Assembly: GCA_015063785.1 (NCBI GenBank)
Contig: SVTM01000008.1
Location: 12,406-76,405 of the forward strand
DNA: 64,000 nt
Direction of reading: 5' to 3'
From: Oscillospiraceae bacterium
Lineage (GTDB): Bacteria; Bacillota; Clostridia; Oscillospirales; CAG-382
Shown one piece after another: positions 16,735-60,611 of this stretch; the first letter of the stretch is position 1; each line of letters begins with the position of its first letter. The notes beneath the pieces are model-generated. The model ran no database searches. It saw only the letters and a program-made list of their open reading frames with translations, and was not told the DNA's origin. The translations under genes and the position numbers were made by a program.

Positions 16735-16750
16735 CCGATAAGGCAAAAAA

Positions 16751-16780: not shown

Positions 16781-16790
16781 TTGCCATTTT

Positions 16791-18154: not shown

Positions 18155-18167
18155 GTTTTTTCTCCTT

Positions 18168-19444: not shown

Positions 19445-19459
19445 TTTGATCCTCCTTTG

Positions 19460-19510
19460 GACTATTTTGATAGTCTGGACTACTTCTGTAGTCTATACTA
19501 TCACAATAGT
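19460..19510 (-). promoter_or_regulatory. three phased operator-like palindromes upstream of the BlaI-like gene
   Basis: GACTAT-tttg-ATAGTC (19460..19475), GACTAC-ttct-GTAGTC (19478..19493) and ACTAT-caca-ATAGT (19497..19510). Centre-to-centre spacing is exactly 18 bp. Confidence 0.65.
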
Positions 19511-19523
19511 CTGCGTTTGTCAA
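19495..19523 (-). promoter_or_regulatory. putative sigma-A promoter of the blaI-like operon
   Basis: Minus strand: TTGACA (19523..19518), 17 nt, TAGTAT (19500..19495). It is overlapped by the palindromes. Confidence 0.5.
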
Positions 19524-19531
19524 GTATTTTT

Positions 19532-19573
19532 TGCAAAAAAATACCCGAAAAAGAAATTTTCTTTCTCGGGTAT
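19532..19573 (-). terminator. terminator of the 2-hydroxyacid dehydrogenase gene
   Basis: Minus strand: ATACCCGAGAAAGA-aaat-TTCTTTTTCGGGTAT (one mismatch), then T8. Confidence 0.7.
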
Positions 19574-19580
19574 CAGTTTT

Positions 19581-20531: not shown

Positions 20532-20665
20532 AAAAAAATACCTGCTTTCAATCGTCATACGAATATATTACACTTAAATTGATTGTTTGTCAATAGACTA
20601 CAGGGACTTGTAATATTCACATTTATATGCTATCATTTATTAAATCTTACTTTGGGAGAATAGAT

Positions 20666-28665: not shown

Positions 28666-28685
28666 TATATTGCTCCTCATTTTTC

Positions 28686-44046: not shown

Positions 44047-47000
44047 TCACTTAACCGTGATTCTCAAAGCGTGGCCCTTGTCATACGACGAACCGGTGAG
44101 GATATACTGAGGAATAACAACGTCCTTGTTGTCTGTTCCGTCGGCGTTCTTCGACCAGATCTCGGTATAGAAATCACAGTGCCAGTGGCCGCAGAAGTGA
44201 GCCTTGACAACATCGGGGTTCATAGCGATAAGATCATAGATCTGCTTGGTTGCACCTGTGCCGGTGTCTGAGATAAAGTTGCCGTCGTTATAGAAGTTTG
44301 CGGGGCTACTTGTTGTATCGTTGATACGGATAGCATCCATAGACGCATCGGCAGGGTTTCTTGTGATAAACGGAATGTGAGTGAAGAGAAGGATGGGAAG
44401 TCCCTTTGCCTTCGCCTTTTCGATACTTGCTTCCAAGAGAGGAACCTGATGATCCCAGAACTTTCTCTGGCTGTTATCCATCTGGATGATCATTACCTTT
44501 TCGGTGCCCTCGTCGTTCTTAAGAATCTTTTCTGTGTAGTAAACGTCGTGCTTCCAGACCTTCTTGAGTTGTTCGTATCTTTCGGCAACTGTTGTTGTTT
44601 CGGCAACTGTGCCCTGCATCTTCTTTACGGGCTCGTGGTTTCCGAGAGGAATGAGTGTGTCAGGATAAGGATTCCATACATAGGTATAAAGAAGATCAAC
44701 ACAACCCTGCGAGAGATAGTCGATGGCGTCGCCTGTTACAACTATCTGATCGGAGTAGCTTGCGTATTCGATACTGTTGAGAAGAGCCGTCTGTGTGCCG
44801 GGATATCTGAAGGCTCTTCTGTTTGCCCATGTGCTTGCAAGTACGGGGTCCTTGAGGTCTTCTTCGGTACAGTAATTGAAGTGGGTATCAGAAAGCTGAA
44901 CGATCTCAACGTCAGAACCGGGAATGCCCGAATCAATCTCAACTTCGCGCACCATTACGCCGTCGCCAAGCTGATAGATCCATGTCTTGGGATCTGCACT
45001 TGAGCCCTTGATATCTGTTCGTGTCTGATTCATATATTCCTGCTTGAGTGTTTCGTCAACGTAATTTTTGATGGTTGCAAGGTATGCTCTGTCGGAATCG
45101 CTGATCGTGGTGTCCTTAAGAGCTTCCTTTGCGACGGTGTAAAGGCTTGTGGCGTAGCTGTTGGTGTAAATAACCTTCTGCGCGCCGTTGGCATCGGTGT
45201 ACTTGATGTAACCGCGGACTGTGTAGTTTCTTCTGTAGTAATCTTCTGTGATGTCGATAACACAAACTGTGTACTGAATGCCGTCGTCTGTGTCTGCAAA
45301 GGTTCTGATGCCCTCGACAGCCTTGGACGAATAGTTCTTACCGTTGAATGTATAGGTTGTGTCGAGCTCGAGCTTTTTGGTTCCGAGAACTTCAGAGGGT
45401 ATAATAACAGAACCGTATTCGGTAACGTCAAGTGCGTCCTGCAAAGCATCGGTCTTTTCTACGATAAAACGGAGACCTGCAGGCTCGATGGTCCTGATCT
45501 GAACGCCCTTGATAAAGAAGTCACCTTCGTCCGAAAAATCGCAGTCAACGTATTTTGCAAAGAGCTTGTCGCCCTTCTTGAAATCTGTGCTTGTAACGCC
45601 GTTGCCGTTTTCGTCCACCCAACCGATAAAGAGCTTGCCGTCCTTTTCGAGATGGCGCAGATTGTTAAATGCAATAGAATAATCCTCGAGGAATTCAACC
45701 TCTGTACCCGTGTTGGTGTAATATACGACATCGGTATATGTAACGGTATATTTACCGGCTGTGGGAACTGCAAGGATTCCGCTGGCAGAAATATATATTT
45801 CGCCGTTATCAGAAGTTGCAACAGCCGTAAGATCGCCGCTTACTTTAAATTCGCCGGCCTTGTCTGTGGTAGAAAGGCTGCTTCCGTCGCGGGCTTCACC
45901 CTTCATAAGCCAGAAACCGTCAGCTGCGGAAAATTCGGGGATCGAAACGTCGATACCGTTGTTGAGAATAACCTGAACAGCTCCTCCGAAGGTGGGAGCA
46001 TAAGTTCCGGAGTGTTCCATAACAGTTTTCACTGTTCCGCCGTTAATGGTAAGATTTACGTCATCGGTAAAGTCAACGCCGTAGGTGGGGCCGCCTGTCC
46101 AGCCGTCTGCACCAAAGCGAAGAATGTCAATATCTCCGCCGTTGATAACGATGTCTGCGCCTGCTGTCTTGTGTCTTGAAGCGGTGTTGTAGTATGCGCC
46201 GACGTACACTATTCTTGTTTTGCCCGAATTGTGAACAAAGTTTTCTCTGCCGCCGTCTGTGTTATAGGTTCCGATGTGGAAGGATGCGCCGAGGATGTTT
46301 GACGCAGTCGTTGTGAAATTAATACCATCACCCATCACAAGCTCGTGACCTGCGGATTCGATAAACTTACTTGCCTTTGTTATATTGAGAGTTATTTTTT
46401 CAAAGGTTGTGGGACCGTTCACAGCAACACTTTCATTGTAAATGTTAACTGAGCCACCGGTAATGATGATCATGTTTTCATGCATAGCAAGCGATCCCGT
46501 GATCTTTTGTTCGCCGATGATGATAACATATCTTTTGGATGCCTGAGCCGCATCAACTGCTTTTATTGCGGCATCAAGTGTCGCAAAAGGAGCAAGCTCG
46601 CTTGCACCGTTGTTGAAATCGGAACCCTTTTCGGCATCAACATACACAATGGCAACATCATCGATTTTGTTCCAAACGGAAACAATATTTACCTCGTCCT
46701 CGTCTTCGGGGAGAACAAAAAGGTCACCGCCGTTGTAAGAAACTCCGTTGATTGTCCAGCCAACAAACTCACCCGCGGGGTTGTCGGAAAGTGTGGGGAG
46801 AGTGATAGTTGAACCTTTTACGTAATATCCCGTGTCAATAACACCGTCGTATTTCACAAGAATCTGATCGCCCGAAAGTTCCTTGGTCCATGTAACGGTA
46901 TATTCACCTGCGGGAACTGTAAGAATTCCTTCAGCGGACGTATATGTAACACCCGAAGAAGACAGTGCGACGGCGATTTTTTCGCCAATGACCTCAAAGC

Positions 47001-48339
47001 TTCCGATGGTGTCGGTAAGTGCAAGCTTCGCACCCGAATCATCTGCAGCTGCCTTGAGCACCCATGCGCCGTCGGTAAGTGTCATGCCTGTTGCGGTGTA
47101 AGGAACGGAAAGCCCGTTGTTCATTATGATCTGAAGAGATTTTGCCGTGCAGTTGCCTGCTCCGACATCGGCAATTTTGCCTACGCTTCCGCTGTCTATG
47201 ACAACAGAAAGATCCTGCATAGACCACGAGCCCGAACCGTTGCGCAGCTTGATGGTCTGTATTGTTGCGCCGTCAACATAAATGCCCTGGTCTCCCGCAA
47301 GAGTAACGGTGCCATCCCAACCGCCAAAAGCAACTTCGTTGTAATTTCCGGAAAGAAGCGAAATGGTGCCGGAATTGGACGAGCTGTAACGTCCCGATAC
47401 ATCAATATCAAGATTTCCCGCAGCAGCAATACCTGCATTTGCCGCAGTTCCCGCTCCGGTCTTTCTTGTTCTCAGATATGTGATATTTCCTTCGAACTTT
47501 GCGCTATGTCCATATGTAACAAAGTTTTTGCCGGTATTATATCCCTCGATAAGGGTAATATTCTTGAAAACAGACGGGCCCTTAAGCTCGAGATGATTTA
47601 TACCGAAGCAGAGTACCGAATCGGAAGCATCTCCGACGTAAGTGATAGTTCCCGTATGAGCAGGAACGTTGACATACTGAAGAACGTCCTGTTCGCCGCC
47701 GTATGTGTAAGGCGAGCTTGAACTTCTTGTGTAAACGGCATATTCGGCATTGCCGTCCTTGTCCTTACCGTCAAGAACGACGATCGTTCCGTCCTTGGTC
47801 GTGCCAATGATTTCGATGGCGCGTGCGATTGTCTTGACAGATGTTTCTTCTGTCAAGCCGTCGTTGGTGTCAGAACCATATTTATTCGAAACATATACCG
47901 ATCCGATCACAGGAGCTTTCTTTACGGTAAGCACCTCTTGATCGAGAATCTCGGTGTAAGTATCGTTGTCAAAAAGAACGATAGTCCATTCGCCCTCCTG
48001 CAGAGGCCATCCGCCGGGGGTATTCTTGGTTCTTGCCAGATAATGATCTTCACTGTTGAAAAATTCGGTGCTGAAAGTAACTGTTCCGCCGCCGACGGGA
48101 GCCAACTGCCAGCCGGAATGCTTATTTTCACCGACCGTCTGAGACGAATGATAAACGCAGATCCAGTCCTTGGCGTCTGTGTTTTCGCAAATTACATCGA
48201 AAACGGTGTTGCCGGGTTCGATGGTGGTGGGGTTGAGAGTGATCGAAGGTGCTGCGGCAGAGGTCGTGATGATCATCGGGAAAAGTCCCACGAGCATCGC
48301 GATGCACAAAAGCACCGACAAAAGCTTTGATCTTCTCAT
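44047..48339 (-). CDS. giant secreted protein B2: paralog of B1 with C-terminal metallophosphoesterase
   Basis: AAGGAG RBS and a signal peptide (MRRSKLLSVLLCIAMLVGLFPMIITTSAAA). Two repeat units (VYVSNKYGSDTNDG..., IVYVDAEKGSDFNNG...), B-repeats (GEFVGWTINGVSY, GKLFIGWVDENG) and phosphoesterase motifs LSDTHFN, VTGDAIDY, LGNHEP, FTHIP, CGHWHCD. Confidence 0.8.
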   Translation of the reverse strand: MRRSKLLSVLLCIAMLVGLFPMIITTSAAAPSITLNPTTIEPGNTVFDVICENTDAKDWICVYHSSQTVGENKHSGWQLAPVGGGTVTFSTEFFNSEDHYLARTKNTPGGWPLQEGEWTIVLFDNDTYTEILDQEVLTVKKAPVIGSVYVSNKYGSDTNDGLTEETSVKTIARAIEIIGTTKDGTIVVLDGKDKDGNAEYAVYTRSSSSPYTYGGEQDVLQYVNVPAHTGTITYVGDASDSVLCFGINHLELKGPSVFKNITLIEGYNTGKNFVTYGHSAKFEGNITYLRTRKTGAGTAANAGIAAAGNLDIDVSGRYSSSNSGTISLLSGNYNEVAFGGWDGTVTLAGDQGIYVDGATIQTIKLRNGSGSWSMQDLSVVIDSGSVGKIADVGAGNCTAKSLQIIMNNGLSVPYTATGMTLTDGAWVLKAAADDSGAKLALTDTIGSFEVIGEKIAVALSSSGVTYTSAEGILTVPAGEYTVTWTKELSGDQILVKYDGVIDTGYYVKGSTITLPTLSDNPAGEFVGWTINGVSYNGGDLFVLPEDEDEVNIVSVWNKIDDVAIVYVDAEKGSDFNNGASELAPFATLDAAIKAVDAAQASKRYVIIIGEQKITGSLAMHENMIIITGGSVNIYNESVAVNGPTTFEKITLNITKASKFIESAGHELVMGDGINFTTTASNILGASFHIGTYNTDGGRENFVHNSGKTRIVYVGAYYNTASRHKTAGADIVINGGDIDILRFGADGWTGGPTYGVDFTDDVNLTINGGTVKTVMEHSGTYAPTFGGAVQVILNNGIDVSIPEFSAADGFWLMKGEARDGSSLSTTDKAGEFKVSGDLTAVATSDNGEIYISASGILAVPTAGKYTVTYTDVVYYTNTGTEVEFLEDYSIAFNNLRHLEKDGKLFIGWVDENGNGVTSTDFKKGDKLFAKYVDCDFSDEGDFFIKGVQIRTIEPAGLRFIVEKTDALQDALDVTEYGSVIIPSEVLGTKKLELDTTYTFNGKNYSSKAVEGIRTFADTDDGIQYTVCVIDITEDYYRRNYTVRGYIKYTDANGAQKVIYTNSYATSLYTVAKEALKDTTISDSDRAYLATIKNYVDETLKQEYMNQTRTDIKGSSADPKTWIYQLGDGVMVREVEIDSGIPGSDVEIVQLSDTHFNYCTEEDLKDPVLASTWANRRAFRYPGTQTALLNSIEYASYSDQIVVTGDAIDYLSQGCVDLLYTYVWNPYPDTLIPLGNHEPVKKMQGTVAETTTVAERYEQLKKVWKHDVYYTEKILKNDEGTEKVMIIQMDNSQRKFWDHQVPLLEASIEKAKAKGLPILLFTHIPFITRNPADASMDAIRINDTTSSPANFYNDGNFISDTGTGATKQIYDLIAMNPDVVKAHFCGHWHCDFYTEIWSKNADGTDNKDVVIPQYILTGSSYDKGHALRITVK
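45139..45519 (-). other. shared ~130-140 aa module (copy in B2)
   Basis: FFIKGVQIRTIEPAGLRFIVEKTD...YGSVIIPSEVL...RTFADTDDGIQYTVCVIDITEDYYRRNYTVRGYIKYTDANG. Confidence 0.6.
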
Positions 48340-48472: not shown

Positions 48473-49336
48473 TTACGGCAGATCTTTCTTTTCTTTCAAT
48501 ACCCTCTCCATGTGCGAAAGATCATAAAAACCGCAGGCATGGGCGATTTCGGTTTTTGAAAAGCCCCCTTGCTCTATCATTTCAAGAGCTTTTTTTGCCC
48601 GATACGAGTTAAGATAATTTATGGGCGTACAGCCACAGATGGAAGAAAAATTGCGCAGGAAGGTGGATCGCGAAAGAAAGACCGTTTTACACAGCGAATC
48701 GACGGTTATTTTTTCGCCGTAGTGCTGATGGATATATTCAAGCGCCTTGATTATATTGCTTTCGTATTTTTCCGCACAGCCGCCCTTGGTTTCGAGCTGT
48801 TTGAAAAGCTGATACGACAGCTGGTAGATTATCTTCCACGCCGTGTGGTTTTTTAAGGGTTCAAGCTCGTCGCGATCAAACTCTCCCCCGTCCCGTATCA
48901 GCGAAAGCTCGTCCCGAAGATTGGAAAGCTTTGGTGCCGAAAGGTGCAGAAAGAAGGGGCTTGAAAAGCTTTTTCGCAAGAAAGGCTCGATCTCCACAAG
49001 CTGTAAAAAACCCGGCACACCCACCGCTTCTTCCCGGTTTTCCGCCACAAAGGAATTTCTAAAAAGCACGTGAAAAACGTCGAGATCATGGGTGTCGTAA
49101 TAGGCGTGAACCGTGTTTGGCGGAATAACGAAAACGTCACCCGTACGCACCAAAAAGCGCGAGCCTTCGATGACGTGGGTGCCCTCACCGCGAAACACCA
49201 CATTCATCTCGTAAAAATCGTGGTCGTGGGGCTCGATCGAATAGTCAGTGTAAACAAACGCGCGTACCGATTGGGCAGAGTTTTTGAAGCATCGATCGGC
49301 GTAGCTTCGGAATTTGCCGTCAGATTTCATAAGCAC
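48473..49336 (-). CDS. AraC family transcriptional regulator (cupin + HTH)
   Basis: Cupin half (HDHDFYEMNVVFRGEGTHVIEG...GDVFVIPPNTVHAY) and an AraC HTH half (VDSLCKTVFLSRSTFLRNFSSICGCTPINYL). Divergent from GRE1. Confidence 0.85.
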   Translation of the reverse strand: MLMKSDGKFRSYADRCFKNSAQSVRAFVYTDYSIEPHDHDFYEMNVVFRGEGTHVIEGSRFLVRTGDVFVIPPNTVHAYYDTHDLDVFHVLFRNSFVAENREEAVGVPGFLQLVEIEPFLRKSFSSPFFLHLSAPKLSNLRDELSLIRDGGEFDRDELEPLKNHTAWKIIYQLSYQLFKQLETKGGCAEKYESNIIKALEYIHQHYGEKITVDSLCKTVFLSRSTFLRNFSSICGCTPINYLNSYRAKKALEMIEQGGFSKTEIAHACGFYDLSHMERVLKEKKDLP

Positions 49337-49440
49337 CTCGGTTTTTGAAATTATTATACATGATTTTTGAACTTTTGTACTATTATTGTATCACAATATG
49401 TGTCATAATGCAAGTATAAAAGCAAAAAAGGAGAACAGGC

Positions 49441-51531
49441 ATGGAAAGAATCGAAAAACTCCGTCTTGTCGCTCTCGATCACTATCCGAGAAACGACGAG
49501 TTTTATTATAATTTTTACAAAAAATACTCGGCCGACACCCGAGAATCGGAATATGAAAAATACGCCGATGCATACTATTATGCGCTTACAAATTTCACCC
49601 CCCACATTACCGACGGTGAGCTTATTGTGGGCGAAAGCGAACTTCTGATGAACGAGCGCGACTATGACGAATGGGAAAAGATATATCACCCCATCGCCGA
49701 CGAAAGAAACGGATTGGCAGGCCCCGGTCAGGATTCGCACATGGCAATAGACTACGAGCTTGTCTTAAAGAGCGGCCTGCGCGGTATAATAGAAAAGATC
49801 GACGGCCTTTTGCCCGACAGCTGCGGCGAAAAGAAAGAGTTTTACAACACCTGCAAAAAGTGCCTTGAAGCGGTGATCGTATATTCGGAAAACTATGCAA
49901 AAAAAGCACTCGAGCTTGCAGAAAAAGAAGAAAACGAAGAAAGAAAAGCCGAGCTTTACGACATTGCCCGTATATGCAAAAAAGTTCCTGCAGAACCTGC
50001 AGAATCTTTCCACGAAGCGGTGCAGGCAGTGCATTTTGTTTCGCATTGCCTTTCGATAAACCCATACCGCCTTGGATTGCAACAATTTCAGCTGGGTCAT
50101 CCCGACAGGTACCTTTTGCCATATTATCTCGAAGATACAAAAAACGGCATTCTTTCCAAAGAGCGCGCACAGCTTCTGCTTGACCTTTTGGGCATACAAA
50201 TAAATATGCGTGTTCCCAACGGACTTTCGTCGGGATATATGGTGGGCGGCCGCGACGAAAACGGCAAAGCCGTTGCCAACGACCTTACAGAAATGGGTAT
50301 GCAGGTAATTGACGACATCCGCCTTGTTTACCCCTCTGTCGGCCTTTGCTACACCACAGACACCGACGACAAATATCTTGAAAAAGCCTGCGAAATTCTT
50401 TCGCACGGAAGAAGTCATCCTGCAATTTTCGGCGACGAAACGATTACAAAAGGTCTTCTTTCTTATGGCGTTCCCAAAGAGCAGGCGTGCAATTATATCC
50501 ACAGCACCTGTGTCGAGATAACCCCCGTTGCGGCATCAAACGTGTGGGTGGCAAGCCCATATACCAATATGCCCCAGCTTCTGCTTGATGTGATGGACAA
50601 GGAATACGAAAGCTTTGACAGTCTTATCGATGCCCTATTTGCTCATCTCGATGCAAGGATAAAGGACAATTTTGAATGGCAGGACAGAGCAAGAAGAATA
50701 CGCAACAAAAATTCGATGAATCCCCTTCTCTCATGCTTTGTCAACGATTGTCTTGAAAGAGGGCTTGACATCGAAAAGGGCGGTGCCGTATACAACTGGA
50801 TAACCCCGAGTTTTGTGGGGGTTGCAAATCTTGTCGACTCGCTTTATGCGGTGAAAACGGTGGTTTTTGAAAAGAAGCTTTTAAGTATTTGCGAGTTCAA
50901 GAAAATAGTCGATGCGGATTTTGAAGGCAACGAAGTTCTTCGCCAGATGATACAAAACACCATTCCAAAATACGGCAACGACGATGACGATATCGACGGA
51001 TATTTCAGCCTTATCACAGATCACCTCGTATCGGAATGTAAAAAATACCAATCCATCCACTCGAACGCCAACATTATCCCCAGCGTTTTCTGCTGGATAA
51101 TGCACGAATGGTTCGGAAGAGAAACGGGTGCTACCCCCGACGGCAGATGTGCAGGTTTCCCCCTTGGCGACGGCTCGGGTCCCTGCCAGGGAAGAGAAAT
51201 GAAAGGTCCGACGGCATCTGTTCTTTCGTCGACAAAGTGGGATCACCACGAGCTTATCGGCGGTGTGGCCGTGAATATGAAATTCTCAAAAAAATCACTG
51301 GGCAAGGGTTCGATCGAAACCATGAAAAACATCGTGAAAACATATATTTCCCGTGGCGGATTTGAGATGCAGATAAACGTTATCGACAAAGAAACACTGG
51401 AAAAAGCCGTTGAAAATCCCGAGCAGTACAAGGATCTTGTGGTGCGCATCGGCGGCTACAGCGATTATTTCACCCGAATCTCGCCACAGATGCAAAAGGA
51501 AGTTATTCTTCGAACGGAGCACGAGATATAA
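49441..51531 (+). CDS. glycyl radical enzyme, short form (GRE1; Cys-x-Glu eliminase-type loop)
   Basis: AAGGAG RBS. C-terminal glycyl-radical motif VVRIGGYSDYF (Gly codon 51454..51456). Thiyl loop HSTCVEITP (Cys codon 50509..50511). Only 696 aa. Confidence 0.85.
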   Translation: MERIEKLRLVALDHYPRNDEFYYNFYKKYSADTRESEYEKYADAYYYALTNFTPHITDGELIVGESELLMNERDYDEWEKIYHPIADERNGLAGPGQDSHMAIDYELVLKSGLRGIIEKIDGLLPDSCGEKKEFYNTCKKCLEAVIVYSENYAKKALELAEKEENEERKAELYDIARICKKVPAEPAESFHEAVQAVHFVSHCLSINPYRLGLQQFQLGHPDRYLLPYYLEDTKNGILSKERAQLLLDLLGIQINMRVPNGLSSGYMVGGRDENGKAVANDLTEMGMQVIDDIRLVYPSVGLCYTTDTDDKYLEKACEILSHGRSHPAIFGDETITKGLLSYGVPKEQACNYIHSTCVEITPVAASNVWVASPYTNMPQLLLDVMDKEYESFDSLIDALFAHLDARIKDNFEWQDRARRIRNKNSMNPLLSCFVNDCLERGLDIEKGGAVYNWITPSFVGVANLVDSLYAVKTVVFEKKLLSICEFKKIVDADFEGNEVLRQMIQNTIPKYGNDDDDIDGYFSLITDHLVSECKKYQSIHSNANIIPSVFCWIMHEWFGRETGATPDGRCAGFPLGDGSGPCQGREMKGPTASVLSSTKWDHHELIGGVAVNMKFSKKSLGKGSIETMKNIVKTYISRGGFEMQINVIDKETLEKAVENPEQYKDLVVRIGGYSDYFTRISPQMQKEVILRTEHEI

Positions 51532-52430
51532 TGACAGGCAAGATATTCAATATTCAGCGGTTCAGCACCTCGGACGGGCCGGGCATACGTACCACCGTTT
51601 TCTTCAAGGGGTGTCCCCTTTCGTGCGTGTGGTGTCACAATCCCGAATCGCACGCGGCAAAAAGCGAGATTTTTTACGATGCAAAAAAGTGCATCGGCTG
51701 TCGCCTTTGTGAAAAGGTCTGCCCGAACATATGCCACAAGTTCGGTGAAAGCGGTCATGTTTTTGTGCGCGAAAACTGCGAAAAATGCGGCGAATGTGCC
51801 AAGGTATGCCCTGCGAAATCGCTTGAAATATGCGGCGAGGAAATGAGCGCCGACAAAGTGATGGAAACGGTGATGCGCGATCTGCCCTTTTACGAGCAGT
51901 CGGGCGGCGGACTTACCCTTTCGGGAGGCGAGCCTCTGGCACAGTTTGATTTTGCCCTTGAGCTCCTTAAAAAAGCAAAAGAAAACGGGATTTCCACCGC
52001 CGTTGAGACCTCGGGCTTTTGCAGACGCGATCTTGCGGACATGGCAAAATACGTTGATCTCTGGCTTTTTGACATAAAGCTTTTTGACAAGGACGAACAC
52101 GAAAAATACACAGGTGTTTCAAACGAGTTGATTTTTGAGAATCTGCGGTGTCTTGACGGTTTTGGCGCAAAGATCATTCTGCGTTGCCCGATAATTCCCG
52201 ACATAAACCTCGAAAGAGCGCATTTTGAAAAAATAGCCGAGCTTGCAAACAGCCTTGAAAACGTGATTGCCGTAAATCTTGAGCCATACCATCCTTTGGG
52301 AATTTCAAAATCAAATCTTCTCGGCAAAAATCCAAAGTTTGAAAACGAAGATTTTTTGCCCAAAGAAGAGCTTTTGCGTTTTGCAGACATAATATCTGCC
52401 ACTTCGGATGTGAAAGTGGAAATAGAATAG
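51531..52430 (+). CDS. glycyl-radical enzyme activating protein (radical SAM)
   Basis: Radical-SAM cluster motif CPLSCVWCHNPES plus two ferredoxin-like CxxCxxCxxxC motifs (CIGCRLCEKVCP, CEKCGECAKVCP). TAATG overlap with the GRE1 stop. Confidence 0.9.
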   Translation: MTGKIFNIQRFSTSDGPGIRTTVFFKGCPLSCVWCHNPESHAAKSEIFYDAKKCIGCRLCEKVCPNICHKFGESGHVFVRENCEKCGECAKVCPAKSLEICGEEMSADKVMETVMRDLPFYEQSGGGLTLSGGEPLAQFDFALELLKKAKENGISTAVETSGFCRRDLADMAKYVDLWLFDIKLFDKDEHEKYTGVSNELIFENLRCLDGFGAKIILRCPIIPDINLERAHFEKIAELANSLENVIAVNLEPYHPLGISKSNLLGKNPKFENEDFLPKEELLRFADIISATSDVKVEIE

Positions 52431-52436
52431 AAAATG

Positions 52437-52468
52437 AAAAACTGCGCGATCCGCAGTTTTTTCTTTTC
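52437..52468 (+). terminator. terminator after the GRE activase
   Basis: AAAACTGCG-cgatc-CGCAGTTTT followed by TTCTTTTC. Short stem. Confidence 0.55.
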
Positions 52469-52570
52469 GAAAATTTTTCGTAATCAAAGCTATTGAAAAT
52501 TTTCAAAGTATATGTACAATATCAGATAAAGCATCCGACAAAACAGATCACGCAAAAGGAGATGTAATAA

Positions 52571-53830
52571 ATGATAAACGTCAACGATCATATCGGCAAA
52601 ACCGACAGCGAAACTTTTGAAAACGCCATGAAAAACAAAGGGGCAGACGGAATCGTGATCGTTCCTCCCAGAGTGTCCGACATTGAACCCGACCGAAAAT
52701 TCTGGCTGATCGACCGTGCCATTCTTCTTGAAGAAAACACCACGATCATCATGCAGAACAGCACGATAAAGCTTTCGGACAACTGCCGCGACAACTTTTT
52801 CAGAAGCGCAAACTGCGGACTTGGAATCCCCTTTCCCGAAAGAATACACAACATACATATAAAAGGCGAAGGTCTTTGCACTCTTGTCGGCGCAGACCAC
52901 CCGAGAGCCGTGGGCGACAGCTCGAAAATACTTGCCAACCCCTGTCCTTACGAGGTTGACGACCTGATAGCCCTTGCGGACTGGATCCCCCCTGAAAGAA
53001 AAACCCACGAAACCATGGATTTTTGGGACAGACACAACCATTCCTACGGCACCGATGCGGGAAAAGAAGGCGAGTCGCAATATGGCGACTGGCGCGGAAT
53101 AGGCGTTCTTTTTGCAAACGTCGAGGATTTTTCGATCTCAAACATCCGCATCGTGGAGTCGCACGGTTGGGGAATTTCGCTGGAAGAATGCGCAAAGGGC
53201 AGAATAGAAAAGATCGATTTTGATGCCTGCATGTCAAAGGTTATTGACGGGCTTCGCAACAATATGGAAAACCAGGACGGCATCGACCTGCGAAACGGAT
53301 GCCACGATATCATAATTTCAGATATCACGGGAAAAACAGGTGACGACGTGGTTGCTCTTACCGCCATTGCAGATCCCGATTATCTCCCCGGCGGAAGCCT
53401 GCGCACCACCCACGTAATGCACAACGACTGGACAAAGCGCGACAGAAACATACACAACATTATCATCAAAAACGTTATGGCAACGTCTGATCTTTGCTTT
53501 ATCGTAAGACTTTTGCCCGCAAACGCAAAGATCTGGAACGTGGTCATCGACGGCATTGTCGATACCACCCCCGATGATCGCACCCACGGCGCCACGATAC
53601 TTTTCGGCGACGACGGATACGGAAAAAATCCCGAGGACGGTCTGCGCTATATCACCCTTTCAAACGTTGTCTGCAAGGCAGAATGCGGCATCGACATCTC
53701 CGGTTATCTGAAAGATTCGATCATAACAAACATAATCAACAAAAACCCCAACGCCCCCACCGTCATTGTCCGCAAGGAAAACGGACTTTGCAACGTGAAG
53801 TTTGGCGAGGAAATAAAGGTTTTGAACTGA
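52571..53830 (+). CDS. pectate-lyase-fold / GH28-like glycosidase, cytoplasmic
   Basis: AAGGAG RBS. The N-terminus resembles the Pectate_lyase_3 type. NQDGIDL and TGDDVVALTA resemble the GH28 N-T-D-G-x-D and G-D-D-x-x-A catalytic blocks. No signal peptide. Confidence 0.5.
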   Translation: MINVNDHIGKTDSETFENAMKNKGADGIVIVPPRVSDIEPDRKFWLIDRAILLEENTTIIMQNSTIKLSDNCRDNFFRSANCGLGIPFPERIHNIHIKGEGLCTLVGADHPRAVGDSSKILANPCPYEVDDLIALADWIPPERKTHETMDFWDRHNHSYGTDAGKEGESQYGDWRGIGVLFANVEDFSISNIRIVESHGWGISLEECAKGRIEKIDFDACMSKVIDGLRNNMENQDGIDLRNGCHDIIISDITGKTGDDVVALTAIADPDYLPGGSLRTTHVMHNDWTKRDRNIHNIIIKNVMATSDLCFIVRLLPANAKIWNVVIDGIVDTTPDDRTHGATILFGDDGYGKNPEDGLRYITLSNVVCKAECGIDISGYLKDSIITNIINKNPNAPTVIVRKENGLCNVKFGEEIKVLN

Positions 53831-53843
53831 GCTTTATTAAAAC

Positions 53844-53870
53844 AAAAATCCACCTTCCGGTGGATTTTTT
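53844..53870. terminator. bidirectional terminator (GH28-like / ADH convergent)
   Basis: AAAAATCCACC-ttcc-GGTGGATTTTT. Confidence 0.8.
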
Positions 53871-53887
53871 GTTATATTTCCGTTTTT

Positions 53888-54982
53888 TCAGCGCACAAGC
53901 AACGTCTTGATGTTTTTGCCGCTTTTGGCATCTGCCACCGCTTCATTTATCTTTTCAATGGGATAATAGCTTGATATCTCGCGTACCATGGGAAAAACAT
54001 CCTCGTTTTTGCTCATAAATTCCACGTATTTTTCAACGTCACACACGGAATACTGGGAAGAACCGATGATATGAAGCGCCTTGAAGGTAATAAGTTGGGG
54101 CGAAAGTTCCACTGTTCCCGAAGCGCTGTATTGACCCGGAACAAGATACACTCCGCGGTTGCGCAGAATATCGATGCCCTGAATAAACGCCTGCGGTGCG
54201 CCCGAAGCTTCAAAGCAAAGGTCAACTCCGATACCGCCGTTTTCTGACTGCAAAGCTTTTATAACGTTTTCGGCGCCATCCTTTGAAAGGCTAAAGACCT
54301 TGTCTGCACCAATTTTTTTTGCCATTTCATCACGCTTTTCGTTTGCACCGGCAATGATGACATAAACCTTCTTGACACCAAGCTTTTTAAGGTACATGGT
54401 GGCAAATGCACCCACGGGGCCAAATCCTTGAACCACGGCACAATCGATCTTTGAAAGGTCAACGCCCGCTTTTGCCGCCAGCGAAAAGGCGTGTATCGCC
54501 GTGGGACCGGGGCAGGCAAAAACTGCCGCCGCCGAAGGATCAACGTTTTTCGGCAATTTTATAAGATTTGTAAGCGGAGTAAAATTCACCTGCGTGTATC
54601 CGCCGTAAAGATATGGAGGCTCGTCGATGCTTCCGCCGTTTGTTACCGCCATATTCACACAGTTGGCATCATCGCCGTTTTCGCACAGCTTGCATTTTCC
54701 GCAAGGAACAGCAATGTCGGCAATAACGGCATCGCCTTTGGAAAGGCCGTATTTTTCCGCCTCTTTTTCGTCAACGTCAATTATACGTCCCACAAATTCA
54801 TGACCTATTATCGAAGGATATGAAACGCCGAGCTTTCCGTTGTGCATGTGGATATCGGTTCCGCAGATGCCGCTGGCAATGATCTCCATTGCGGCATAGC
54901 CCGACGGTGCTTTCACCACGTCAAATTCGCGTATATCAAAATCCTTGTGTGCTCCCATAAATACTGCAGCCTTTGCTTTCAT
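53888..54982 (-). CDS. zinc-dependent medium-chain alcohol/polyol dehydrogenase
   Basis: GICGTDIHMHNG and GHEFVGRI zinc-ligand motifs, a structural-zinc Cys cluster (CGKCKLCENGDDANC) and Rossmann VVQGFGPVG. It starts 28 nt after the GRE2 stop. Confidence 0.85.
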   Translation of the reverse strand: MKAKAAVFMGAHKDFDIREFDVVKAPSGYAAMEIIASGICGTDIHMHNGKLGVSYPSIIGHEFVGRIIDVDEKEAEKYGLSKGDAVIADIAVPCGKCKLCENGDDANCVNMAVTNGGSIDEPPYLYGGYTQVNFTPLTNLIKLPKNVDPSAAAVFACPGPTAIHAFSLAAKAGVDLSKIDCAVVQGFGPVGAFATMYLKKLGVKKVYVIIAGANEKRDEMAKKIGADKVFSLSKDGAENVIKALQSENGGIGVDLCFEASGAPQAFIQGIDILRNRGVYLVPGQYSASGTVELSPQLITFKALHIIGSSQYSVCDVEKYVEFMSKNEDVFPMVREISSYYPIEKINEAVADAKSGKNIKTLLVR

Positions 54983-55010
54983 GATATATACTCCTTTTTG
55001 TTTTCGATTT

Positions 55011-57116
55011 TTATTCGTGCTGGGTACGGTTGAGGATATCTTTTTGCACTTCCTTTGAAAGATTCACGTATATTGCCGAGAATCCCGACACTCTCACCAC
55101 AAGATTTTTGTAATTTTCCGGATGCACCATCGCTTTTTCCAGGGTATCTCTCGATGTGGCATTTATCTGTATCTCCTGACCGCCAAGCTTAAAATACGTC
55201 CTCACCATAGCCCGCAGCTTTGCAAGGTTGTTATCCGAAAAGCTCGAGGGGGAATATTTTTGATTGACCACGCTTCCGCAGGCAACCTTGGTATAATCGG
55301 GCTTGGAAACACTTTTTATCGCGGCGGTGGCGCCGTTTGAATCCCTTCCGTAGGTGGGAGAAGCGGCATCTGACAAAGGTTCGCCGCGATGTCTTCCGTC
55401 GGGGGTCGCGTTTATCGTCTGACCGGCATATATATTACTCACATTTGCCGCCGCGGCTATATATATACCTCCGCCGTCGCGGGTCTTGTATTTTTCAAAA
55501 ACTCCGGCGAGAAAATCTATGAACCAAACGGCATATTTGTCAACAAAATCATCGTCATTTCCGTATTTGGGTGCCAAAACAAGCTTTCTGCGCAATTCCT
55601 CATATCCATCAAAATCCGCATTCAGCGCAGCTTTCAGTTCGGAAAGAGATGCGCTTTTGTCTTCAAACACCACTTTTTCTATGGCGGCAAGAGAGTCAGC
55701 GGTGGTTCCGATACCCATGAGTGCCACTCCATGCACCGAAGGATAGACAGAGCCGCCGTCGTTTATATCAAGACCTCTGCCGATGCAGTCATGGCAGAAA
55801 CAGGACAAAAAGGGCTCGGGGAAATATTTTTGGTTGATCTTGTTGTTGCAATTATTGAAGGACGCCATATATGCCGACGCTGAATATTCAAGCTGTTTTT
55901 CAAAAGCAGCCATAAATTCTTCCATCGACTTTATATCTTCCACATTTCCCATATCAAGTCCCATTGATCCGTCGATCTTGCAAACTCCGTTGTTGAAGAT
56001 ATAATCAAAGCAGCGCGGCGGATCAAAACGTCCGTCAGACCACGGCGGCTGCATACCCGTGATGAAATTTTCAATACAACCTACCATTGAGTAATTGTAT
56101 ATATCCTTTTCGGCATAACCGTATTTTTTCAAGGCGGCAATGTTTATATCATCATTCATCATAGCGGGATATCCAAGGCCTGTGCCAATGGTTTTTAAGC
56201 ATTCGTCAAGAAAATCGTCCGGCAAATTTTCAGTATAGCGCAACGAAAGATTGGGGCCGGGAACATTACAGTTTTTAACAGCTTTCAGAATACAGCAAGA
56301 CAGCCTGTTTATATCACAGCTTCCGTCGGGACTTTTACCGCCGATACAGATATTCACCACGTCGTTCTGAAGTTTTATAAATACGTTTTCAAGAAGTCCT
56401 GTTGCCTGATCTTCTGTTAAAATCCCTTTTTCAATATCGGCGGCAAAAAAAGGATACAAATATTGATCAAGCCTTCCCAGCGCCATGGCATAGCGCTCTT
56501 CCATCAAAAAGGCGGTGTGACAGAACCACACGAGTTGGAGCGCCTGAGCAAAGCTTTGTGGGCGTTCCGAAGCAACTGCACGGCAATTACCGATCATATA
56601 ATCAAGATATTCATCGTTGTATCCGTCTTTGTCCTTACACCTTTCTGCCTCGTCGGCATAACGGGAAATAAGGTGTGAAAAAGCACACATTGTTTTTCGC
56701 ATTCCCGAAAGGGTTTCGAGCTTTTCAGGATCGTGGGAATACTCCTTCAGCGATGAATCTATCTTTTCAATGATCCCATTTATACCCAGCGTAAGTATTT
56801 GATCGTAATTGGGAGCATAATGATCTTTGTTGGTAATAAAATCACGACTGCCAAAGCCATCAACAACCTTTTTTGCCGCGGCAAGTGTTTGATCATCCTT
56901 GTCGGTGTAAAGCAGTTTTGTATTTCCTGCGATGATCTCGTTTTTCAAAACCACAGGTGCAGTCTTTTCAAAAAGCGCACATATCCCGTTTGCCCGAAGC
57001 TTTGCGGGACACGCCGCAAGATCCTGTGCATAGCCGATGTATCGGAAATAATACGGGGCAAATATGCCACAGGATTCTTCACATAATTCGTTGTTAAGTT
57101 TTTCAAAAAGCTTCAT
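55011..57116 (-). CDS. glycyl radical enzyme, short form (GRE2), no adjacent activase
   Basis: GAGGGA RBS before ATG 57116. Glycyl motif VVRVSGFSAIY (Gly codon 55083..55085). Thiyl loop MVGCIENF (Cys codon 56076..56078). About 701 aa. Confidence 0.85.
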   Translation of the reverse strand: MKLFEKLNNELCEESCGIFAPYYFRYIGYAQDLAACPAKLRANGICALFEKTAPVVLKNEIIAGNTKLLYTDKDDQTLAAAKKVVDGFGSRDFITNKDHYAPNYDQILTLGINGIIEKIDSSLKEYSHDPEKLETLSGMRKTMCAFSHLISRYADEAERCKDKDGYNDEYLDYMIGNCRAVASERPQSFAQALQLVWFCHTAFLMEERYAMALGRLDQYLYPFFAADIEKGILTEDQATGLLENVFIKLQNDVVNICIGGKSPDGSCDINRLSCCILKAVKNCNVPGPNLSLRYTENLPDDFLDECLKTIGTGLGYPAMMNDDINIAALKKYGYAEKDIYNYSMVGCIENFITGMQPPWSDGRFDPPRCFDYIFNNGVCKIDGSMGLDMGNVEDIKSMEEFMAAFEKQLEYSASAYMASFNNCNNKINQKYFPEPFLSCFCHDCIGRGLDINDGGSVYPSVHGVALMGIGTTADSLAAIEKVVFEDKSASLSELKAALNADFDGYEELRRKLVLAPKYGNDDDFVDKYAVWFIDFLAGVFEKYKTRDGGGIYIAAAANVSNIYAGQTINATPDGRHRGEPLSDAASPTYGRDSNGATAAIKSVSKPDYTKVACGSVVNQKYSPSSFSDNNLAKLRAMVRTYFKLGGQEIQINATSRDTLEKAMVHPENYKNLVVRVSGFSAIYVNLSKEVQKDILNRTQHE

Positions 57117-57241
57117 GAGAGATCCCTCGTTTCTCATATATTCTTTATTTTCATTTTACCATTTCAAAAAAACTTGTAAATAGACGCAATTAACATTCTT
57201 GACAAAATTAATATTATTTGTTAAACTTGATATGAGGTGGT

Positions 57242-58041
57242 ATGATGAAAAAGATCGAGGCTTTAACAATGCCAGAATTACACTTTGCCCATAGATTTGA
57301 GGCAGAATCCTACAAGCATTCTTTTGTCAACACAGGTGAGCTTCTTGAAATAACATATATTGCAGAAGGCTCGTTGAACATAAATATCGGCAACGAAACC
57401 TTTAAAGCAAACAAGGGCGATATCATCTGCTTTTTTCACGACGAAGGAGCAACAGTCACCTCCGATTCCTTTCATCGGCCCACACGGTCGGAGCATCATT
57501 TGACTACTGCTGTTCCGAAAGCCCCGACAGCATACATCTGCCGCTGATAGTTTGCGAAAAAAACGGCACAGACAAGATCTGCCGCATGATCGACGAGATA
57601 ATAGGTGACAGCGCCGCTATGAAAGCATCTTGCACAAAATTCGCCGCAAGATTTTTCGGTCTGCTTCTGAACATCGATGCGGTTTACAAAAGATGTGTTC
57701 TTCTTGTTCCCGGAGAAGAGCTTTACGTCAGAAAAATAAAGGAGTACGTAAACAGCAATATCCATCTGCCCATATCCCAAAAAAACGCCGCAGAGCATCT
57801 TGGAATATCCCCCGGATATCTTTGTAATATATTCAAAAAAAATACGGGCATACCATTTATGAAATACGTCAACAGAATAAAGCTTGAAAATATCAAATCA
57901 ATAATGGACAGAGAAAATATTCCTCTTTACAAAGCCGCCTCACTGTACGGGTATTCCGACGCCAACTATGTCAGCAGGCTTTATTCGCAGATGTTTGGGT
58001 ATAGTATAACAAAAAAGCTCAATTCTGCAAAGGAGATATGA
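57242..58041 (+). pseudogene. AraC family regulator interrupted by a frameshift (or sequencing error)
   Basis: The cupin half is in frame 2 (57242..57547, sensible up to ...GATVTSDSFH). The HTH half is in frame 1 (open from 57406; ...HTVGASFDYCCSESPDSIHLPLIVCEKNG...MIDEIIG to 58041). The frames switch around 57470..57482, consistent with a 1-nt deletion. Confidence 0.6.
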
Positions 58042-58104: not shown

Positions 58105-58569
58105 TTATTTATCCAGTTCGGCAAGTATCTCGGCGGCGTTGGTGTCGGGTTTTACCTTGGGCATGATCTTTTCGATATTGCCCTTTTCGTCAATGATAAA
58201 TGTGGTGCGGACAACGCCAAAGCCCAACTTTCCGCAAAGCTTCTTTTCCTGCCACACATCATATGCCTTGATCGCCAAAAGGTCGGGGTCAGAAAGAAGC
58301 ACAAAGGGAAGATCGTATTTCTGTGCAAATTTTACGTGGGAGGCAACGCTGTCCTTGCTGATGCCGATGACCTCGACGTTCAAAGTTTTGAATCTCGCAT
58401 ATGCACCTGCAAACGCGCACGCCTGACGGGTGCAACCTGGGGTGTTGTCTTTGGGATAAAAATATAAAACAACCTTTTTGCCAAGAAAGTCCGAAAGCGA
58501 AACGCTCTTTCCGTCCTTGTCAAAAAGTGTGAAATCGGGTGCCTTTGCACCAACTGTAAGATTGCTCAT
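58105..58569 (-). CDS. bcp: thiol peroxidase / peroxiredoxin Bcp
   Basis: FYPKDNTPGCTRQACAF is the Bcp-type peroxidatic Cys motif. 154 aa. Confidence 0.9.
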   Translation of the reverse strand: MSNLTVGAKAPDFTLFDKDGKSVSLSDFLGKKVVLYFYPKDNTPGCTRQACAFAGAYARFKTLNVEVIGISKDSVASHVKFAQKYDLPFVLLSDPDLLAIKAYDVWQEKKLCGKLGFGVVRTTFIIDEKGNIEKIMPKVKPDTNAAEILAELDK

Positions 58570-58677: not shown

Positions 58678-59517
58678 TTACCTTTCGGGCAAATAAAGCC
58701 TTTTGTATTCAGCGGGCGTTTTGTTAAAACACGCTTTGAAGCATTTTGAAAAATAAGCGGGGTCAGAAAATCCGCACGCTTTTCCTATTTCATTGATAGA
58801 AAGATTGGATTGCAACAACATATTCTTGGCATAAAACAATCTTGTTTCGTTAAGGTAGTGATTTGGAGTGGTGGAAAGCTCTTTTTTGAAAAGACGTATC
58901 AAATAGCTTTTGTTCAGATGCACTTCTCCCGATATGTCATCAAGGGATATGTTTTTTTGATAATTTTCGTTTATAAAACGGCACGCTCTTTCGATATGGC
59001 TTTTTTGCGAGGCTTCTACCACCTTTCTTTTATATCTGTGCACGTCGCTCAAAACCAGAAGCAAAAACTCTGTGATATACTTTTTTTGTTCTTCGGGATT
59101 GATTATGCTCGGATATGAACAGCTTATCATTCTTTTATAAATTTCAAGCAATTCTTCCTGATGGTACGGGTAAAAAGTATCGGGGATCTCGTCGAGCAAA
59201 GGCATTTCCACCGTCGGCTGCTGCGGAGTATCTCTGTGTCTCAGATATACGTCGGGCGGAATGTTGACGGTGTGGCTGAAATCAAGAGAAAGTGTATAAC
59301 AGTCGTAATCTCCGTATCCGACAACTATCTGACCCGGCTTTCTGAATACCAGAATACCTTTTGATATTTTATGATATCGGTCATCTATGTACATATCTCT
59401 TTCGCCGCTTAAATAAAAATCAAATTCGTAATCTTTAACACGGCGCATGTTTTTTATCGTGCTTTTCAGCTTGAAGTGATTGCATTGCAAAATGGTTGGA
59501 ATTATGAATTCTGACAT
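58678..59517 (-). CDS. AraC family transcriptional regulator
   Basis: GGGGGAGG RBS before ATG 59517. C-terminal HTH (LDDISGEVHLNKSYLIRLFKKELSTTPNHYL...GFSDPAYFSKCFKACFNKTPAEYK). Confidence 0.85.
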   Translation of the reverse strand: MSEFIIPTILQCNHFKLKSTIKNMRRVKDYEFDFYLSGERDMYIDDRYHKISKGILVFRKPGQIVVGYGDYDCYTLSLDFSHTVNIPPDVYLRHRDTPQQPTVEMPLLDEIPDTFYPYHQEELLEIYKRMISCSYPSIINPEEQKKYITEFLLLVLSDVHRYKRKVVEASQKSHIERACRFINENYQKNISLDDISGEVHLNKSYLIRLFKKELSTTPNHYLNETRLFYAKNMLLQSNLSINEIGKACGFSDPAYFSKCFKACFNKTPAEYKRLYLPER

Positions 59518-59647
59518 TTTCCTCCCCCTTTTTCTCAAGTATAATCCCGCGAAAACCAAATGTCAATATTTTTATATAAAAAGCACATTTTGTTGATTGA
59601 CTTTTTGCAAATAAAGGTATAAATTTATAGAAAAGAGATCGTGAAAG

Positions 59648-60610: not shown

Positions 60611-60611
60611 A

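Follow-up and report, generated by a model that had tools for sequence, protein, structure and literature searches.

Layout of the locus

Between positions 48473 and 58041 of the 64-kb window analysed here (the whole stretch of DNA, 64,000 nucleotides from an uncultured Oscillospiraceae bacterium of the gut) lie two genes for short glycyl radical enzymes (GREs), called GRE1 and GRE2 below, in the company of one GRE-activating enzyme, a GH28-like beta-helix protein, a zinc-dependent alcohol dehydrogenase (Zn-ADH) and AraC-family regulators. An earlier note, made from the sequence alone, had drawn a six-gene map of this region and read it as one functional, mirror-like unit. Open reading frame (ORF) listing and domain scans bore out the map, with all six genes present in the order and on the strands described. 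The single unit, in contrast, did not hold up. Three parts stand side by side here: the AraC, GRE1 and activase genes form one cassette, the gene for the GH28-like protein is probably a passenger, and the AraC, GRE2 and ADH genes form a second cassette, which has no activase of its own.

The first cassette begins with AraC1 (48473-49336, minus strand), an AraC_binding cupin joined to a helix-turn-helix domain, which is divergent from GRE1 (49441-51531, plus strand; 696 aa; 364 bits to PF02901 and 90 bits to PF01228). The GRE-activating radical S-adenosylmethionine enzyme follows on the same strand (51531-52430; 299 aa), scoring 339.6 bits on TIGR02494 (cut-off 174) and carrying Fer4 domains in a ferredoxin-like two-cluster insert. 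Downstream, and preceded by a promoter-like site (52493-52520), is the gene for the 419-aa GH28-like protein (52571-53830, plus strand), a predicted beta-helix with zero Pfam matches in the scan. The convergent gap beyond it holds a bidirectional terminator-like hairpin (53844-53869) with an 11-bp stem and T tracts on both strands. On the other side are the Zn-ADH, a medium-chain dehydrogenase (53888-54982, minus strand; 364 aa; 68.7 bits to PF08240 and 70.7 bits to PF00107), and GRE2 (minus strand; 440 bits to PF02901 and 96 bits to PF01228). The ORF of GRE2 spans 55011-57137, and its start is most likely the second ATG (57116), since a GAGGGA precedes it and it gives the family-typical length of 701 aa; the likely gene is thus 55011-57116. 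A promoter-like site lies 5' of it on the same strand (57153-57180: TTTACA, a 16-nt spacer, TAAAAT and a TG extension, with 10 of 12 consensus matches, as a pattern match only). AraC2 closes the block on the plus strand (57242-58041) as two ORFs (57242-57547 and 57586-58041) split by a 1-nt frameshift.

The region 48473-58041 is identical to a contig of a JGI metagenome. GRE1 is deposited as MBE6571274.1, and the 419-aa protein, the ADH and GRE2 as MBE6571276.1 to MBE6571278.1, from a Ruminococcaceae/Oscillospiraceae metagenome-assembled genome (MAG); the public names are 'hypothetical protein' for GRE1 and 'DUF3029 family protein' for GRE2 (MBE6571278.1). As the earlier note had remarked, microcompartment and transport genes are missing: no bacterial microcompartment shell, aldehyde dehydrogenase, phosphotransacylase or transporter gene was found within 48.4-58.1 kb, and none of the first three among the called genes up to 10 kb either side of GRE1. 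The nearest transporters, a uracil permease and a tripartite ATP-independent periplasmic system, both lie more than 4.5 kb upstream. No kinase, phosphotransferase system (PTS) or aldolase gene was found in the locus, and no pyrroline-5-carboxylate reductase gene nearby.

The block is kept in a second, related species (locus L091) at 70-83% amino-acid identity. There the order is a big Metallophos protein and AraC1, then GRE1, activase and beta-helix gene, continuing convergently with the ADH and GRE2, again without an activase between them, followed by an intact AraC2 and a peroxiredoxin gene. Pairwise dN/dS between the window and L091 is 0.08-0.14 for GRE1, the activase, the beta-helix gene, the ADH and GRE2 (0.08-0.09 for GRE2 and the ADH), with dS saturated. 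The low values indicate that the activase-less GRE2-ADH pair is kept under selection, and GRE2 must then be activated in trans.

Relation to characterised glycyl radical enzymes

Both proteins belong to the GRE superfamily, having a barrel like that of pyruvate formate-lyase (PFL), a C-terminal Gly-radical domain and a glycyl motif (RIGGY in GRE1, RVSGF in GRE2). Their thiyl loops, TCVE and GCIE, consist of a single Cys followed by x-Glu, an arrangement invariant across the GRE1 and GRE2 families, and the catalytic Cys aligns in both with Cys433 of B12-independent glycerol dehydratase (GD); radical formation is predicted only. The corresponding residues of GRE1 are the radical Gly672, Cys357 and Glu359, and its His100 aligns with GD His164. 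The earlier note had singled out these motifs as unlike the Cys-Cys of PFL, and rightly so: a PFL-type formate-lyase function was rejected because the Cys-Cys pair is absent. The limited similarity that it saw between the two enzymes amounts to 29% identity, and against the solved GREs each reaches about 30% in every case, aligning only from about residue 100. The best PDB match of GRE1 is the GD structure 1r8w (317 bits); that of GRE2 is likewise 1r8w (343 bits), then the 1,2-propanediol dehydratase (PD) 9rco (329 bits). After 1R8W, the PDB order runs through HypD, CutC and the propanediol dehydratases. The entry 9RCO was considered as a possible new function and rejected, being a GRM3 PD.

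Curated family cut-offs, all from NCBIfam, place both enzymes well outside the named groups. On TIGR01774 (the PFL2/glycerol dehydratase subfamily), where the alignment covers only profile positions from about 152 onward, GRE1 scores 397 bits and GRE2 419 bits against a cut-off of 678.2. By way of calibration, ten full-length GREs without equivalog assignment score 512-971 on this model (nine of about 790-820 aa at 663-971, and a 758-aa outlier at 512); one of the ten is a true HypD, which reaches 1436 on the HypD equivalog. The highest equivalog for both of our enzymes is HypD, trans-4-hydroxy-L-proline dehydratase (NF043068), at 359 and 380 bits for GRE1 and GRE2 against a cut-off of 1100. 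For CutC (TIGR04394) the scores are 294 and 363 bits (cut-off 1050), for PflD (PRK09983) 300 and 322 (1109), for the sulfonate GREs HpsG and HpfG 298-333 (1000; IslA has no model in the NCBIfam list), and for PFL (TIGR01255) 106 and 128 (994). Membership of any NCBIfam equivalog was rejected on these scores, every one far below its cut-off.

The active-site residues lead to the same separation. At GD positions 164, 281, 282, 339, 433, 435, 447, 640 and 642, the fingerprint of GD is HHSYCEDYS and that of PD, read from pairwise alignments and not from a multiple alignment, HHSYCEDYV; HypD has HDAFCELLT, YbiW HHSYCEGSI, PflD HSSGCEDYV and PflB RAAWCSGLI. Aligned to these, GRE1 reads HQQSCEAFW and GRE2 HYA-CEDAN, the loop before Tyr339 being deleted in the latter. 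We take the HypD active-site positions to be H160, D278, F340 and T645; the alignment puts these at the expected columns and was therefore trusted for the fingerprints. HypD shares with both enzymes the Cys-x-Glu and His core, and differs in that its Asp278, Phe340 and Thr645 have no equivalents here (Q, S and W in GRE1; Y, V and N in GRE2) and in the P5C (pyrroline-5-carboxylate) reductase gene that the locus does not have nearby. Position 164 is His in GD, HypD, YbiW, PflD, 9rco, GRE1 and GRE2, and Arg in PflB and in L155, an uncharacterised full-length GRE whose sulfonate type is a guess only; of the Arg/Gln/Arg anchor of sulfonate GREs this position was compared, and both of our enzymes have His there. 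An alignment of 39 sequences shows why they are short: some 55 residues after the N-terminal 'ELIVG' motif (HypD 88-142) are missing from both, as is the loop at GD 320-336, and GRE1 also lacks GD 463-478.

In neighbor-joining (NJ) trees, the placement that the earlier note had proposed as a check, monophyly has 100/100 bootstrap support for the GRE1 core and likewise for the GRE2 family, both apart from the characterised GREs and never sister groups; with PflB as the root, the short GREs fall outside the group of full-length PFL2 enzymes. Judged on sequence, neither GRE belongs to any known curated family. This agrees with the note, which could assign the substrate to no characterised GRE pathway: equivalog scores are far below cut-off, identity to solved structures is about 30%, and the fingerprints are unique. 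Because neither enzyme clusters with characterised GREs and both have fingerprints of their own, the tight clustering with known GREs that the note had set against its own reading was not seen. Our literature search turned up no account of a short GRE or of one from a carbohydrate locus, and a 2026 review stresses that whole GRE clades are without validated function. According to the same review, all characterised 1,2-eliminases and isomerases keep the Cys-x-Glu motif, and GD uses Glu435 to deprotonate the C1-OH (the carbinol OH) and His164 to give a proton to the leaving OH. As both of our enzymes keep the His, Cys and Glu, and GRE2 also the Asp447 equivalent, we infer C-O-cleaving eliminase or isomerase chemistry.

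The two enzymes and their partners

GRE2 has a conserved partner. Its relatives adjoin an orthologue of the Zn-ADH in 14 of the 17 loci with readable flank, down to 47% identity, and an activase is present in 11 of these, the usual order being an AraC gene on the minus strand followed divergently by GRE2, activase and ADH. Homologues of AraC2 are divergent from GRE2 in L007-L010, L091-L094, L096, L098 and others. In the window GRE2 and the ADH are separated by 28 bp without an activase between them, as are the pairs in L096 and L106 that also lack one. Beyond the ADH, activase and AraC genes the neighbours of GRE2 are heterogeneous (60 proteins, 76 families); GH78 rhamnosidases come up three times among about 17 loci, and SASA esterases in two or more separate loci (L094 and the element of L008-L010), a recurrence that is suggestive and a hint only. 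The family comprises more than 120 clusters at 90% identity, nearly all of 700-701 aa, and members of the GRE1 and GRE2 families span 64-97% identity to the query. An exhaustive HMMER scan with GRE2, run over 1.84 billion cluster representatives (50% identity), gave about 2,000 GRE-like sequences at E<=1e-30, of which only about 5-8 fall in the GRE2 family proper, with a fringe of about 10 more short relatives at 38-43% identity.

The ADH itself has ADH_N and ADH_zinc_N domains, GICGTD and GHE motifs and a four-Cys cluster (PCGKCKLCENGDDANC). It scores below all NCBIfam equivalog cut-offs, the best model being HpnZ-like (139 bits), then threonine, idonate and inosose dehydrogenases, and its best PDB match, 1vj0, is a protein of unknown function.

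By alignment GRE2 has equivalents of all four GD catalytic residues (His164, Cys433, Glu435 and Asp447), and the pocket around them is changed relative to GD and PD: His281 to Tyr, Ser282 to Ala, the Tyr339 loop deleted, Tyr640 to Ala and Ser/Val642 to Asn. This fingerprint is kept down to 48% identity except for single-residue changes in two loci. The catalytic apparatus of GRE2 is closest to that of the diol dehydratases, with a pocket that is remodelled and probably larger. We suggest with moderate confidence that GRE2 is a dehydratase of the diol/polyol type and that the ADH reduces the carbonyl compound it forms. The thiyl radical would abstract the hydrogen on the carbinol carbon, the Glu would deprotonate the hydroxyl there and the His would give a proton to the oxygen leaving group next to it, which would depart as water (or as an ether oxygen); the resulting aldehyde or ketone would be reduced by the Zn-ADH with NAD(P)H. 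The AraC2/GRE2-ADH cassette would then work as an electron sink or in detoxification, a compact counterpart of dhaB1-dhaB2-dhaT that acts on a vicinal diol or polyol, not on glycerol or 1,2-propanediol. Its own activase would have been lost in this lineage, with GRE2 activated in trans by the 299-aa enzyme or by one encoded elsewhere.

The closeness to diol dehydratases raises the alternative of a known reaction carried out by an isozyme outside any microcompartment: GRE2 would dehydrate 1,2-propanediol (from rhamnose or fucose, for example) or glycerol, and the ADH would make 1-propanol or 1,3-propanediol. The Clostridium butyricum genes dhaB1-dhaB2-dhaT run in the order GRE, activase, alcohol dehydrogenase, and the order of GRE2 cassettes elsewhere mirrors it, as does their logic. 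DhaB1 (1R8W/1R9D) comes closest to both of our GREs in sequence and fold and is like both in the radical Gly, the Cys-x-Glu loop and His164, the Asp447 being common to GRE2 only; the GRM3 and GRM5 PDs (9RCO and 5I2G) come second for GRE2 and have the same catalytic tetrad, and the three GH78 rhamnosidases also speak for this alternative. Nevertheless we hold this explanation to be unlikely. All five substrate-contacting positions common to GD and PD differ in GRE2, and His281, Ser282, Tyr339, Tyr640 and Ser642 of DhaB1 are replaced in GRE1 as well; identity to DhaB1 is only 34-35% over the aligned core (about 35% for GRE2), and both enzymes are about 85 residues shorter. The partner of GRE2 is a polyol-type Zn medium-chain dehydrogenase, unlike the diol dehydrogenase DhaT, which is of the Fe type, and the shell, aldehyde dehydrogenase and phosphotransacylase genes of the GRM3/GRM5 systems are absent here.

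One GRE2 cassette has a setting of its own. In L008-L010 (about 7700-21000) a GRE2-activase (254 aa)-ADH-SASA esterase cassette, identical in protein sequence on many gut metagenome contigs, sits between TnpV, PhdYeFM/ParE, NikA-like and relaxase genes of a mobile element and adjoins a 914-1023-aa protein with an RdRP (PF05183) domain.

GRE1 belongs to a family of more than 120 clusters at 90% identity (64-94% identical to the query and all of about 696 aa), and no partner enzyme is conserved beside it. A collection with one genome for each species supplied 80 loci, of which about 60 belong to MAGs of gut Clostridia (46-68% identity) and the remainder (37-44% identity) to Lentisphaerota/Victivallales, Anaerolineae, Planctomycetota, Latescibacterota and Armatimonadota; a single isolate, Oligosphaera ethanolica DSM 24202 (L079, 41% identity), is among the carriers of GRE1-like genes. 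The only recurrent neighbours are a RhaS-like AraC gene upstream (25 of the 51 core loci with enough flank) and an activase directly downstream (17 of 44). When the nearest gene on each side that was not a GRE, activase or AraC gene was taken from the 80 loci, a Pfam scan of the 118 proteins gave 157 families and no conserved pathway partner, the maximum being four occurrences (URO-D-like). Many of these neighbours are carbohydrate-active, including GH20, GH38, GH42, GH78, GH106, GH123 and GH127 proteins, a sulfatase and an FGGY kinase.

Homologues as little as about 49% identical to GRE1 have essentially its fingerprint; the exception is a single position, where Q gives way to L below about 50%. 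GRE1 has Ala at the position of GD Asp447 and Q, Q, S, F and W at 281, 282, 339, 640 and 642, a Gln/Ser/Phe/Trp lining that softly suggests a carbohydrate-like ligand. In the AlphaFold2 (AF2) model (mean predicted local distance difference test, pLDDT, 80.8) the fold is predicted to be complete despite the short length, with TM scores of 0.84-0.90 to all PFL2-type structures and no preference among them. Upstream, AraC1 (PF02311 58.8 bits, PF12833 50.4 bits; public gene call starting at 49330, 285 aa) has RhaS as its best NCBIfam model, at 78 bits and below cut-off. With moderate confidence we propose that GRE1 is an orphan C-O lyase or isomerase for the sugar-like inducer of AraC1: in the AraC1/GRE1-activase cassette, the RhaS-like regulator would sense the sugar-like compound on which GRE1 acts, as a C-O-cleaving eliminase or a ring-opening isomerase. 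The earlier note's proposal of a sugar- or polyol-derived substrate for the locus is plausible in this light, the evidence for it being soft.

A narrower version of this idea, that one or both of our enzymes are YbiW/PflD-type isomerases, opening the rings of anhydro- or deoxy-sugars or their phosphates without net dehydration, seems to us rather improbable. YbiW and PflD, which are 1,5-anhydro-hexitol-6-phosphate isomerases, are the only characterised GREs acting on sugars; they use the same Cys-x-Glu and His core for C-O cleavage, and PflD has the Asp447 equivalent. Two Lentisphaerota loci (L068 and L076) have distant GRE1 relatives beside an FGGY sugar kinase, a DeoC/LacD-type aldolase and an IclR gene, a context that resembles the kinase-GRE-aldolase logic of anhydroglycolysis. 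However, these contexts belong to homologues only 40-44% identical whose pocket residues differ, and our locus has no kinase, PTS or aldolase. YbiW and PflD are 29-31% identical to our enzymes and have other fingerprints, with equivalog scores of about 300 where 1109 is required.

Some loci with GRE1 relatives are unusual in other respects. In L068 (Victivallales MAG CAXXVV010000017.1, about 4329-14784) four short GRE paralogues of 696, 726, 696 and 653 aa stand in a row, broken by one 347-aa ORF, with a single activase of 306 aa; PHP, DeoC-like aldolase, FGGY kinase and IclR genes precede them. These GREs are about 25-30% identical to GRE1 and GRE2 in sampled comparisons, and it seems that one activase serves the several GREs of a sugar locus here. 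L018 (Oscillospiraceae SIG526, 10001-16044) is a second mirror, in which an AraC gene is divergent from a GRE1-like gene and activase, followed convergently by another activase and a 704-aa GRE; the latter has Cys-Met-Gly instead of Cys-x-Glu and therefore probably represents a different reaction class. URO-D-like genes (PF01208) lie near GRE1-like genes in nine loci, including L073 and L082 (Anaerolineae), L002, L039, L065, L074, L077 and L087. In the two Anaerolineae loci they occur with a sulfatase and a GHL6 glycosidase-like gene, and in L002 with B12-binding proteins, which suggests a corrinoid methyltransferase system.

The beta-helix gene, the activase and a reading of the locus

The name GH28-like is fair for the fold of the cytoplasmic 419-aa protein. 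Its AF2 model (pLDDT 83) is a right-handed beta-helix, structurally nearest to GH28 polygalacturonases (E 1e-8, TM 0.45-0.53, 11-15% identity), with GH110, GH87 and lyase folds matching almost as well. The protein has no PF00295 match at E<=0.001, although about one-third of its homologues carry a weak precomputed one; it scores only 21.9 bits to the polygalacturonase PglB, a PDB sequence search returned only noise, and there is no signal peptide. The segments invariant in its family are N234-x-D236-G-x-D239 (NQDGID), G257-D258-D259, H281 and R313, spaced similarly to the motifs NTD, DD, GHG and RIK, which we take to be the GH28 signature. Among about 80 GRE1 loci a homologue adjoins a GRE only in the window and L091; elsewhere the homologues stand alone, two long contigs showing unrelated housekeeping neighbours. 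The gene is probably a lineage-specific passenger with its own promoter-like site.

These results bear directly on the mirror unit of the earlier note, in which a single integrated pathway would run through all six genes: the GH28-like glycosidase would free a sugar or uronate unit, the GREs would transform it, the ADH would finish the conversion, and one activase would serve both GREs by design. The block is indeed kept as a unit in L091 with every gene under purifying selection, only one activase lies in the window, and GH78, GH106 and other glycosidases occur near some GRE1 and GRE2 homologues. Nonetheless, the beta-helix gene is beside a GRE only in this lineage and its homologues are in unrelated contexts, GRE1 and GRE2 are separate in nearly all other loci, the only conserved partnership is that of GRE2 with the ADH, and the bidirectional terminator and separate regulators divide a block that has no transporter. 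We therefore consider a six-gene pathway quite improbable.

As to the activase, the earlier note was right that there is one: tblastn found no second activase gene in the whole 64-kb window. This is a derived state, however, since relatives of GRE2 usually carry their own. The one TIGR02494 activase of the locus is a putative cognate enzyme. Most GRE1 loci lack an adjacent activase, so these bacteria seem to make common use of trans activation. The 2026 review records cross-activation for near-identical GREs only and notes that activase specificity has had little study; as the Gly loops here differ (RIGGYSD in GRE1, RVSGFSA in GRE2), cross-activation at this locus would be of interest, as a candidate mechanism only. 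AraC2, which the note had called a pseudogene, is indeed split, but it is one gene with a single-base frameshift near 57470-57482. The L091 orthologue (268 aa) is intact and aligns by tblastn to the window in two frames, at 58% and 76% identity, and the frameshift may be an assembly error. That the GRE2 half is a decaying remnant without current function, as the missing activase in the 28-bp gap (unlike most relatives) and the frameshifted regulator could suggest, is very improbable, given that GRE2 and the ADH are intact with low dN/dS and all catalytic residues, that L091 lacks the activase too and yet has an intact AraC2, that activase-less pairs recur in L096 and L106, and that trans activation is common among GRE1 loci.

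We thus read the locus as two independent AraC-controlled GRE cassettes placed tail to tail, one with GRE2 as a diol/polyol-type dehydratase working with the ADH, the other with GRE1 as a C-O lyase or isomerase, and with the GH28-like gene as a neighbour. Taken as a whole, this is in our judgement somewhat more probable than its negation. Several observations weigh against it. The residues that point to dehydration do not separate it from ether or ring cleavage, since the His/Glu/Asp set is also found in the isomerase PflD. The ADH, being of the polyol/threonine-dehydrogenase branch, could act before GRE2 rather than after it. In the GRE1 model, the segment 551-588, which lines the active site, has pLDDT below 50, and the carbohydrate-active neighbours of GRE1 may reflect the CAZyme-rich (carbohydrate-active enzyme-rich) genomes of these taxa. 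The 299-aa activase is only a candidate for serving GRE2. L091 has an extra orphan GRE-activase-like gene (6421-7311, minus strand; 296 aa; 2.7 kb from AraC2), absent from the window. This orphan lies between a pair of PfkB kinase and KDPG-type (2-keto-3-deoxy-6-phosphogluconate) aldolase genes and an epimerase gene; the activases compared with it are all equally far from it (about 40-44% identity), and it is hence not assignable to either GRE. AraC2 is frameshifted in the window. Finally, the deep GRE phylogeny is weak, with bootstraps of 23% for the full-length clade and 36% for the all-short clade, and for this reason we make no claim of a single short clade.

Within a well-known superfamily the locus is not a categorically new system, but it is a sound and well-delimited lead for enzyme discovery. 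GREs drive anaerobic reactions in the gut that are relevant to health, such as the formation of trimethylamine, p-cresol, skatole and H2S precursors and the use of hydroxyproline, and both families described here are common in animal and human gut Clostridia, labelled 'hypothetical' or 'DUF3029' by pipelines. In both, the genes form compact cassettes, which makes them tractable. The conserved ADH partner of GRE2 offers a coupled NAD(P)H read-out, the RhaS-like regulator a route to the inducer of GRE1, and divergent GREs that share an activase or have none adjacent a natural test bed for activase specificity. More speculatively, and we would call it doubtful at present, the GREs of about 700 aa (GRE1, GRE2 and the paralogues of L068 and L018) could form an overlooked radiation of sugar-processing radical C-O lyases and isomerases in which a single promiscuous activase serves several GREs. 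If so, glycan-degrading anaerobes of the Oscillospiraceae, Lentisphaerota, Anaerolineae, Planctomycetota and Latescibacterota would use them alongside glycoside hydrolases and sulfatases, and one activase acting on GREs only 25-30% identical and with different Gly loops (two here, four in L068) would contradict the picture of one cognate activase for each GRE.

The loci L110-L172 hold two abundant groups of full-length environmental GREs (about 790-810 aa), one with the YbiW-type fingerprint HHSYCEGSI (34 loci) and one with the PflD-type HSSGCEDYV (17 loci); to go by these fingerprints, anhydro-sugar isomerase-like enzymes may be widespread outside enterobacteria.

The flanks of the locus are partly shared with its relatives. 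Three very large paralogous ORFs lie to the left, at 44047-48339 (minus strand, 1430 aa), 24526-28680 (minus, 1384 aa) and 20627-24472 (plus, 1281 aa). The first two are 33% identical, and their sole domain match is a weak one, to a calcineurin-like phosphoesterase at the C-terminus. AraC1 has the 1430-aa gene beside it both in the window and in L091, and a 1740-aa homologue is directly upstream of a GRE1 homologue in L006. To the right, a 154-aa AhpC/TSA peroxiredoxin (58105-58569, minus strand) immediately adjoins AraC2 in the window and in L091. Beyond it, at 58678-62101, a third AraC gene is divergent from genes for a BadF-type sugar kinase, the ManNAc-6-P epimerase NanE and a MurQ/GKRP-like SIS protein; this cluster, apparently for the catabolism of an amino sugar (sialic acid or MurNAc), is not conserved beside the GRE block in L091.

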